56,294 bases of DNA from IMG/VR virus record IMGVR_UViG_3300014903_000004, positions 1 to 56,294 of that record; one strand, written 5' to 3'. This DNA comes from a virus (taxonomy: Duplodnaviria; Caudoviricetes). The notes beneath the pieces were generated by a model that was not told the origin of the DNA, searched no databases, and was given only the letters and a program-made list of their open reading frames with translations. Each line of letters begins with the position of its first letter. The first letter of the stretch is position 1. A program made the position numbers and the translations under genes. Shown piece by piece: positions 40,698 to 40,784 of the stretch.

Positions 40698-40784
40698 TGG
40701 TGGGAGTTGATAGAATCGAACTATCTGGCACCACCGCACATAATAAGCCAAGTGATTTACAGTCACCCGTGCGGAACAACTCCC
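40698..40784 (-). tRNA. Non-canonical tRNA-Tyr(GTA) lacking a D arm
   Basis: Perfect 7-bp acceptor, T arm, loop CTGTAAA, ACCA end; only 10 nt between acceptor and anticodon stems; 25-nt variable region. Confidence 0.75.

Follow-up and report, generated by a model that had tools for sequence, protein, structure and literature searches.

The Tyr-like gene and its parts

The stretch of DNA analysed here, hereafter called the window, is a complete IMG/VR virus record (IMGVR_UViG_3300014903_000004, 56,294 bp) with myovirus-type structural genes for a portal, a large terminase, a major head protein, a tail sheath and a tape measure. This study deals with one gene of its tRNA array, located at 40784..40698 on the minus strand, which resembles a tRNA-Tyr(GUA) and is of full length with 84 nt plus CCA. 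The array extends over 39952..41306 (minus strand); ARAGORN and Rfam each annotated 13 tRNA genes in it, and the Tyr-like gene was in neither set. The order of the genes is Pro, two Leu, two Ser, Cys, the Tyr-like gene, Glu, Thr, Asn, Trp, Phe, Met and Gln. The upstream tRNA-Cys ends 1 nt away from the Tyr-like gene, a 183-nt spacer separates the latter from tRNA-Glu, and CCA is encoded in all 13 neighbouring tRNAs.

An earlier note on this DNA, made from the letters without database searches, had proposed a tRNA-Tyr without a D hairpin, in which the D-region strand pairs inside the loop of the variable arm and thereby forms a pseudoknot. The RNA sequence given there corresponds exactly to 40784..40698 of the minus strand. 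In the following, this long-range helix is termed H1, the variable-arm stem that it crosses H2, and the architecture as a whole rewired. From 5' to 3', the parts of the RNA are:

40777..40784, minus strand: 5' strand of the acceptor stem, 8 nt, GGGAGUUG, partner at 40702-40709
40775..40776, minus strand: UU linker (positions 8-9), read from the sequence
40768..40774, minus strand: H1 5' strand CCGCAC(G), in the place of the 3' strand of a D stem, abutting the anticodon stem
40751..40767, minus strand: anticodon arm GGUGA / CUGUAAA / UCACU, anticodon GUA at 40758-40760
40747..40750, minus strand: H2 5' strand UGGC, in the position of the variable-arm stem, directly 3' of the anticodon stem
40741..40746, minus strand: A/U-rich spacer UUAUUA, read from the sequence
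40734..40740, minus strand: H1 3' strand (U)GUGCGG, within the variable-arm loop, in the place of the 5' strand of a D stem
40730..40733, minus strand: D-loop-like UGGU with GG at 40731-40732, the GG being invariant in the family described below
40726..40729, minus strand: H2 3' strand GCCA, which closes the pseudoknot
40710..40724, minus strand: T arm with a 4-bp stem AUAG/CUAU and the loop UUCGAUU; the G at 40725 is unpaired
40698..40709, minus strand: 3' strand of the acceptor stem CAACUCCC, discriminator A73 (40701) and encoded CCA (40698-40700)

The anticodon loop CUGUAAA (40756-40762) has 7 nt with U33 and a purine at position 37 and matches that of bacterial tRNA-Tyr. A73 and G1:C72 are present, as expected of bacterial tRNA-Tyr. 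The acceptor and anticodon stems are no more than 9 nt apart, so that no D hairpin is possible, as the earlier note had stated. A contiguous D stem-loop is likewise missing, for the anticodon arm, the H2 5' strand and the spacer intervene between the two halves of the 6-bp helix, and the GG is positioned 3' of the anticodon arm. At the position of the variable arm the family has a covarying helix of 3-6 bp, the loop of which, however, is engaged in H1. The invariance of the UU linker in the family was imposed by TTCC in the search patterns and is not independent evidence.

Analysis of the single sequence

The complement CCGCACG/UGUGCGG proposed in the earlier note exists, with six Watson-Crick pairs and a terminal G-U pair. 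UGGC (40750-40747) is complementary to GCCA (40729-40726), and the order of the strands makes a pseudoknot. In 20,000 shuffles of both segments a helix of at least seven pairs (G-U allowed) occurred in 10% (P ~0.10). The nested minimum-free-energy fold contained the 7-bp helix at a z-score of only -1.49. The gene had no match to the Rfam tRNA model RF00005 (gathering score 29 bits) even at E-values up to 10 and was not called by ARAGORN; its only signal in Rfam, a weak one of 24.9 bits, was with the model of the bacterial selenocysteine tRNA (tRNA-Sec, RF01852), for which the gathering score is 47. The frequency of the helix among shuffles, the modest z-score and the lack of an ARAGORN or Rfam call would all suit a decayed or rearranged tRNA-Tyr pseudogene carrying a chance complement. 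From the single window sequence alone, the 7-bp complement is not beyond chance; the proof comes from related sequences.

An artefact of assembly or a chimera was also considered. The window stems from a metagenome, and a search for close phage relatives with the portal protein gave 4 loci in viral contigs (24-27% identity) and 7 in metagenome contigs (24-41%), none of them a close relative; the portal-matched viral and metagenome loci contained no tRNA, and the same search of genome contigs gave no locus. A Logan contig of 10,207 nt and depth 13.1 covers 39900-41400 with 0 differences. An assembler-specific error is thus unlikely, and only this kind of error is excluded, because the Logan run may be the source sample and the contig possibly derives from the same reads. 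No RNA run was among the public sequencing runs listed, and in the runs X2, X3 and X5 only similarity to ordinary tRNAs or short near-identical pieces were found, none of which covers the Tyr gene. The near-identical short contigs, from X3 (seawater) and X5, correspond to 40448-40635 and 40993-41141 of the window with 3 and 1 differing letters and small indels. Close relatives of the window phage therefore exist in other samples, although their pieces in X3 and X5 do not extend over the Tyr gene.

Identification of related genes

An exact 28-nt pattern of the gene had 0 matches in viral contigs, and a pattern of T arm plus acceptor stem matched only ordinary tRNAs. BLAST of the window gene against isolate phages revealed no more than a partial similarity of the anticodon arm to the canonical tRNA-Tyr of Mooglevirus-like phages. 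The first relative, on the viral contig L014, was found with a short exact pattern comprising the anticodon arm and UGGC. This gene has the same layout as the window gene and a completely different acceptor and T stem. The two strands of H1 have changed together, being CCUUAC/GUAAGG in L014 and CCGCAC/GUGCGG in the window gene.

Later search patterns were built from these two genes. A first architecture pattern, which left the middle pairs of H1 and the downstream part free, yielded 24 loci in viral contigs, 23 of them with the architecture. Applied to 596 Gb of prokaryote genomes it yielded 14 loci, 4 with the architecture and 10 by chance, a proportion that calibrates the viral scan. With the variable region unconstrained, at least 119 loci were obtained in viral contigs, and in total 127 loci passed, corresponding to 113 distinct sequences. 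A more specific pattern with free spacer and linker lengths gave 81 loci in genome contigs (72 of the 76 new loci passed). Thus, no fewer than 119 viral and 81 genome contigs carry this architecture, and the GC content of the matches ranges from 0.39 to 0.73.

The rewired tRNA-Tyr family is defined here by the 8/4 branch (8-bp acceptor stem, 4-bp T stem), UU, H1 closed from the variable-arm loop, Y(N)GG, the crossing H2 and A73, and a covariance model of it, R1, was built. In the window R1 scored the rewired gene, which is one of its 25 training sequences, at 83.4 bits and the next match at 20.3 bits. Members outside the training set scored 55-87 bits, and R1 had no match in 10 control loci. 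The existing tools fared differently. ARAGORN called 3 of 128 family genes, and of 20 family genes run against Rfam 15 none attained the gathering score of any model, in contrast to 97 ordinary tRNAs of these loci. The expectation that scanners would miss this gene was therefore borne out for the family at large.

This recurrence bears on the two doubts raised above. The architecture recurs across hundreds of unrelated contigs and is also present in isolate phage genomes and complete bacterial chromosomes; an assembly artefact or chimera is refuted by these independent assemblies and has a negligible probability, which also settles the earlier concern about an assembly error. The pseudogene reading has to account for this recurrence in viral (at least 119) and genome (81) contigs, across the whole range of GC contents, and for the compensatory changes described below.

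Comparative evidence for the pseudoknot

Alignment A1, made with MAFFT from 25 members and no structural input, contained standard pairs in 96.7% of its cells, compared with 67.3% after shuffling and 44-54% when the partners were slid. Compensatory changes were observed at the H1 pairs 13:53, 14:52, 15:51 and 16:50 and at the eighth acceptor pair. Pair 13:53, for example, was UA in 8 members, CG in 6, AU in 5, GC in 4 and UG in 2, and was unpaired in none. The outer CC:GG of H1 was fixed by the search pattern and is not counted as evidence. The lengths that RNAalifold independently predicted from A1 were 8 bp for the acceptor stem, 6 bp each for H1 and the anticodon stem, and 4 bp for the T stem.

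The 113 distinct sequences derive from the scan in which the variable region was left free, the GG region included. H1 was paired at 6/6 positions in 104 of them and at 5/6 in the other 9, the corresponding partner shuffles having a mean of 14.6 and a maximum of 25. H2 had at least 4 pairs in 110 of 113 (partner-shuffle mean 47.8, maximum 60); its length in the family is 3-6 bp, and its core types include GCC:GGC, GGC:GCC, GUC:GAC, GAC:GUC, GCG:CGC and ACC:GGU. When the pseudoknot was written into the 101 members aligned with R1, 93.6% of the cells were paired as compared to 66.7% after shuffling. The central H2 pair in these members was CG in 33, GC in 32, and AU, UA and UG in 5 each, with an imperfect alignment in this region. 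All five pairs of the anticodon stem covary in the family, and the acceptor and T stems differ completely among members while their pairing is retained.

The lengths of the stems differ in part from those first proposed. The nucleotide at position 8 and the one 5' of the acceptor 3' strand were paired in 101/101 members, and the 7/5 alternative in 25/101. The acceptor/T branch is 8/4, and the 7-bp acceptor and 5-bp T stem of the earlier note had to be abandoned. Its 7-bp long-range helix was retained as a helix of probably 6 bp: G17-U35 was paired in 101/113 and the seventh H1 pair in 68/113, and therefore the anticodon stem probably has 6 bp and H1 6 rather than 7.

GG was found 1-2 nt past H1 in 113/113 sequences, which is consistent with the suggestion of the earlier note that UGGU could mimic G18G19. 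Between the anticodon stem and H2 there are 0-1 nt, and between H2 and the T stem 1-2 nt in 111/113. The family spacer has 3-11 nt and consists of 50% A and 37% U. The T loop is UUCRANU in all members, a constancy that was partly fixed by the search patterns.

Covariation of the long-range helix among homologues, which the earlier note had named as a check, was found in H1 and also in the crossing H2, in more than 100 distinct related sequences. Because H1 and H2 both covary and cross, the pseudoknotted fold is almost certainly real and under selection, as judged from these sequence comparisons. The covariation counts refute the pseudogene reading for practical purposes: compensatory changes occurred in both helices, and acceptor and T stems that are wholly different among members are still paired, which leaves decay with a very small probability.

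The pairing counts also concern the proposal of a precursor RNA that would become a canonical cloverleaf tRNA by cutting and re-joining, through permutation or the removal of an intron. Were 'H1 3' strand plus YGGN' to precede the H1 5' strand, the result would be a D stem of 6 bp capped by a tetraloop, a D arm as it occurs in allo-tRNAs (PMC5389517) and in tRNA-Sec, and tRNA genes that are permuted or split are known from archaea and algae (PMC3218864). The 5' and 3' ends of the rewired RNA are, however, already normally placed, and because of this a circular permutation is unable to mend an internal transposition. Furthermore, no helices resembling a splice motif were seen, and the strong selection for pairing of H1 and H2 in the order of the unprocessed RNA speaks for this being the working fold. 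A spliced or permuted precursor was rejected on these three grounds as highly improbable.

Occurrence in phages, bacteria and with other anticodons

Among isolate phages, the gene is present and unannotated in Pseudomonas phage Lyrsu03 (62.9 bits with R1), where only the neighbouring tRNA-Pro is annotated, and in Pseudomonas phage SCYZ1, as read from the sequence. BLAST matches to the family gene were also obtained in Lyrsu01 and Lyrsu02. In the BLAST searches against isolate phages, an L135-type member had no match and an L029-type member matched canonical Tyr genes only.

About 65 of the 81 genome contigs came from Planctomycetota, complete chromosomes included, and the gene is located there in long arrays of 20-39 tRNAs. 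R1 matches were present in at least 6 of 151 sampled Planctomycetota genomes, with 29 candidates scored per genome. Each of five genomes checked has one rewired gene in the array and a canonical tRNA-Tyr elsewhere, in a Thr-Tyr-Gly-Thr cluster in four and as a Tyr-Gly pair in one. The assumption that the rewired gene is the only tRNA-Tyr of planctomycetes was thus rejected, and these arrays are supernumerary. Long, horizontally spread tRNA arrays have been described before (PMC8421152, PMC4758250). 'Tyr' is absent from the main text of the first study (PMC8421152), and Tyr is given among the rarest isotypes in arrays in the second (PMC4758250).

A scan without the anticodon constraint, together with a search with R1, revealed members with other anticodons. 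UAU was found on the rewired scaffold in L057, L062/L063 and L064, UCU (Arg) in L061 and L029, and CCA with G73 in L059, where the gene adjoins a canonical tRNA-Trp. The scaffold is therefore not restricted to Tyr.

In two large phage contigs of 250 kb and 543 kb a rewired gene stands directly beside a canonical one with the same anticodon, namely Tyr in L020 (6273-6362 and 6370-6453) and Trp in L059 (6238-6323 and 6328-6403); this arrangement hints at non-redundant roles. In L023, a second gene (727-826, minus strand; 57.3 bits with R1) lies beside the Tyr member at 836-924. The 8/4 branch, H1, GG and H2 are all present in this second gene, but a 16-nt loop on a 6-bp stem takes the place of the anticodon loop; it may be either a member with an intron or another kind of RNA. 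A weak R1 match (26.8 bits) at L014:7697-7779 has a 7-bp long-range helix and a UCU loop and lacks the GG.

Probable function as a tRNA-Tyr

The most plausible explanation of these observations is that the window gene encodes a charged, decoding tRNA-Tyr and is a functional member of a widespread, unannotated family of rewired tRNA-Tyr(GUA) genes. On the sequence evidence we consider this reading probable. The family genes are found in company with tRNAs, with at least 3 others in 100 of 128 loci and a median of 8 ARAGORN tRNAs per locus. Among the 18 loci with at least 20 ARAGORN tRNAs, a canonical tRNA-Tyr was present in 2, and every other amino acid was represented in 13-18; among the 42 loci with at least 15 tRNAs, the corresponding numbers were 4 for Tyr and 30-38 for the others. 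The determinants of tyrosine acceptance are retained, with A73 in 113/114 members, G1:C72 in 109/114 and an encoded CCA in 87/114. A73 and G1:C72 are bacterial tyrosine identity elements (PMC9976931), and an engineered tRNA without a D arm is accepted by the histidyl-tRNA synthetase of E. coli, by EF-Tu and by the ribosome (PMC11551756).

According to the model proposed here, H1 would replace the 6-bp D stem of the tRNA-Sec or allo-tRNA type and stack on the anticodon stem. The GG would stand in for G18G19 and touch the T loop, so that the L shape is rebuilt with a different connectivity of the strands; in effect, the 'D-stem 5' strand plus D loop' would have been transposed into the variable-arm loop. 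The RNA would be excised from the polycistronic transcript of the array as its neighbours are, charged by the tyrosyl-tRNA synthetase of the host via A73, G1:C72 and the GUA anticodon, and would read UAY codons as the tyrosine tRNA of the array.

Several points weigh against this reading. The gap between GG and H2 is only 0-2 nt in 106/113 sequences, and therefore it is uncertain whether the contact of GG with the T loop and the pairing of H2 can occur simultaneously. The search patterns fixed TTCC, the CUGUAAA loop and the core of the T loop, so that invariance of these elements exists by construction. The gap-filling comparison is conditional on loci that were chosen for the gene, and these loci are only parts of genomes. 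A canonical tRNA-Tyr is also present in 12 of 128 loci, and all five bacterial genomes checked have a canonical housekeeping tRNA-Tyr elsewhere, so that the rewired gene is not needed there as the sole Tyr tRNA. Finally, some irregular 8/4 tRNAs are charged and yet not used in translation (PMC5389517).

The canonical tRNA-Tyr genes in loci and genomes and the irregular 8/4 tRNAs would equally suit a conserved, structured tRNA-like RNA that is not an adaptor: a regulator, a primer mimicking tRNA-Tyr, or an RNA that serves tRNA-targeting nucleases or modification enzymes as a decoy or sponge. The fold departs from every known cytosolic tRNA, as far as these are covered in PMC11551756, one of the retained canonical Tyr genes directly adjoins the rewired gene (L020), and tRNA-Tyr is a target of the anti-phage system retron-Eco7 (PMC11555353). 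Against such a role stand the large arrays, in 16 of 18 of which the rewired gene replaces the canonical tRNA-Tyr, with tRNAs for every other amino acid represented. It would also leave the retention of A73, G1:C72, the CCA end, the canonical T loop and the standard 7-nt anticodon loop to be explained, and the UAU, UCU and CCA anticodons on the same scaffold suit adaptors better than a Tyr-specific decoy. We therefore regard a role other than that of an adaptor as unlikely and retain the decoding tRNA-Tyr as the preferred reading.

Why an adaptor should have such a fold is a matter of speculation, and the idea of nuclease evasion is itself a further weak point of the proposal. The altered fold could keep a supernumerary tRNA usable when nucleases of the host or of a competitor attack the canonical tRNA-Tyr. 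A phage tRNA-Tyr rescues infection in the presence of the retron-Eco7 defence (PMC11555353), and phage tRNAs have been proposed to evade anticodon nucleases via changes in the anticodon loop (PMC10264068). By analogy, enzymes for which the canonical elbow or D arm is the recognition element might fail to act on the rewired core. The more comprehensive proposal, a natural pseudoknotted scaffold fully active in cytosolic bacterial translation, used mainly for Tyr and also with other anticodons, and spread by phage tRNA arrays and long bacterial arrays, which persists by evading tRNA-targeting immune nucleases or toxins while aminoacyl-tRNA synthetases, EF-Tu and the ribosome accept it, is put forward only tentatively, and we rather doubt that it holds in all its parts.

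Comparison with known tRNAs and tRNA mimics

With canonical class II tRNA-Tyr the family shares A73, G1:C72, the CUGUAAA loop with its GUA anticodon, a helix at the position of the variable arm, a canonical T loop, CCA and a similar length, which is 84-87 nt in the rewired family. It differs in having no D hairpin and, instead, a D-stem-like helix closed from within the variable-arm loop, which makes the pseudoknot; moreover, the branch is split 8/4 instead of 7/5, and the genes fail with ARAGORN and with the tRNA model of Rfam.

The closest published class is formed by the (8/4) tRNAs, which comprise allo-tRNAs and phage (8/4) tRNA-Ser and tRNA-His (Mukai et al., PMC5389517); the rewired family is set apart from them on the basis of the main text of that paper. 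According to that text they have in common with the rewired family the 12-bp acceptor branch split 8/4, a variable arm, a D-type stem of 6 bp with a GG-bearing segment of 4 nt after it, a longer anticodon stem and a 2-nt linker, as well as the occurrence in phage tRNA clusters and in polycistrons of irregular tRNAs. Allo-tRNAs, in contrast, form their D stem-loop as a contiguous hairpin, whereas in the rewired family its 5' strand and loop are inside the variable-arm loop. A Tyr identity is not reported there for (8/4) tRNAs; the main text names tRNATyr only in the title of a reference (PMC5389517).

In bacterial tRNA-Sec (RF01852), too, the acceptor stem has 8 bp, the D stem, which carries a tetraloop, and the anticodon stem have 6 bp each, and the variable arm is long. 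The rewired RNA differs from it in the anticodon (GUA, not UCA), in the T stem (4, not 5 bp) and in the non-contiguous D hairpin, and although RF01852 was the only Rfam model with even a weak match, the score of the window RNA was far under the gathering score. Metazoan mitochondrial D-armless tRNAs and the engineered mini HisT also lack a D hairpin, and they demonstrate that a D arm is dispensable for use by aminoacyl-tRNA synthetases, EF-Tu and ribosomes (PMC11551756). Such tRNAs are, however, truncated (mini HisT has ~62 nt) and Y-shaped, and have lost the contact of D loop and T loop (PMC11551756). The members of the rewired family, by comparison, are of full length; besides a canonical T loop they have an invariant GG and a helix resembling a D stem, and they are found in phages and bacteria.

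The tRNA-like domain of transfer-messenger RNA (tmRNA) is a tRNA mimic built with long-range helices or pseudoknots. Plant-virus tRNA-like structures are also mimics with long-range helices or pseudoknots, and some of them are aminoacylated (PMC9976931). These mimics are without a decoding anticodon arm or have the pseudoknot in the acceptor arm; the rewired RNA, in contrast, has a standard anticodon arm and its pseudoknot in the core. No prior description of such a tRNA was found in full-text literature searches, most subscription journals being outside their scope.

Further features of the arrays

The spacer between the rewired gene and tRNA-Glu in the window (40515-40697, minus strand) contains the following elements:

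Promoter-like site TTGACA, 17 nt, AATAGT, with 10/12 matches
Open reading frame of 24 codons, MKKIFIQWQNFTNTFEMYSRSLLF, after the promoter-like site
G+C-rich hairpin followed by a T run, directly before tRNA-Glu

Given the promoter-like site, the reading frame and the hairpin with its T run, the array may consist of two transcription units. A TAT codon, which the earlier note had placed in a leader and taken as an argument for function, is located in the 24-codon reading frame downstream of the gene, past the promoter-like site, and the argument was dropped.

The two tRNA-Leu genes of the window (UAG, UAA; 41057-41133 and 41145-41220, minus strand) have 77 and 76 nt and no long variable arm. 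In the loci with a rewired Tyr gene, L039, L030, L041 and L260 among them, 98 of 153 ARAGORN Leu calls had at most 79 nt, and class-I-like tRNA-Leu seem to accompany rewired tRNA-Tyr in such arrays. In the array of 22 tRNAs on L014, ARAGORN made long calls for Ile-UAU (92 nt, 2035-2126), Met (92 nt, 3437-3528), Asn (90 nt, 4766-4855) and His (87 nt, 9381-9467). Genes for tmRNA were noted in or beside phage tRNA arrays at L014:5466-5828, L019:6572-6907, L063:2297-2663 and L161:672-754. An ARAGORN tRNA with the anticodon CUA ('Pyl', of the amber-suppressor type) occurred alongside the rewired Tyr gene in L046 (2685-2762) and L222 (~2276). Beside the tRNA array of L023, a viral contig of 173 kb, a match to the Rfam wcaG RNA was obtained at 1479-1578 (47 bits, gathering score 42).

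Implications

The rewired family represents a natural non-cloverleaf tRNA fold outside mitochondria and would be a counter-example in phages and bacterial chromosomes. For phages and arrays the immediate consequence is that their tRNA sets have been reported without a tRNA-Tyr although the gene is present. With the natural sequences it becomes testable to what extent the connectivity of a tRNA, rather than its shape, matters to synthetases, EF-Tu, RNase P, modification enzymes and the ribosome, and a natural scaffold that looks orthogonal may be of interest for the expansion of the genetic code. If the fold protects against tRNA-directed defence, it would constitute a new principle of counter-defence.

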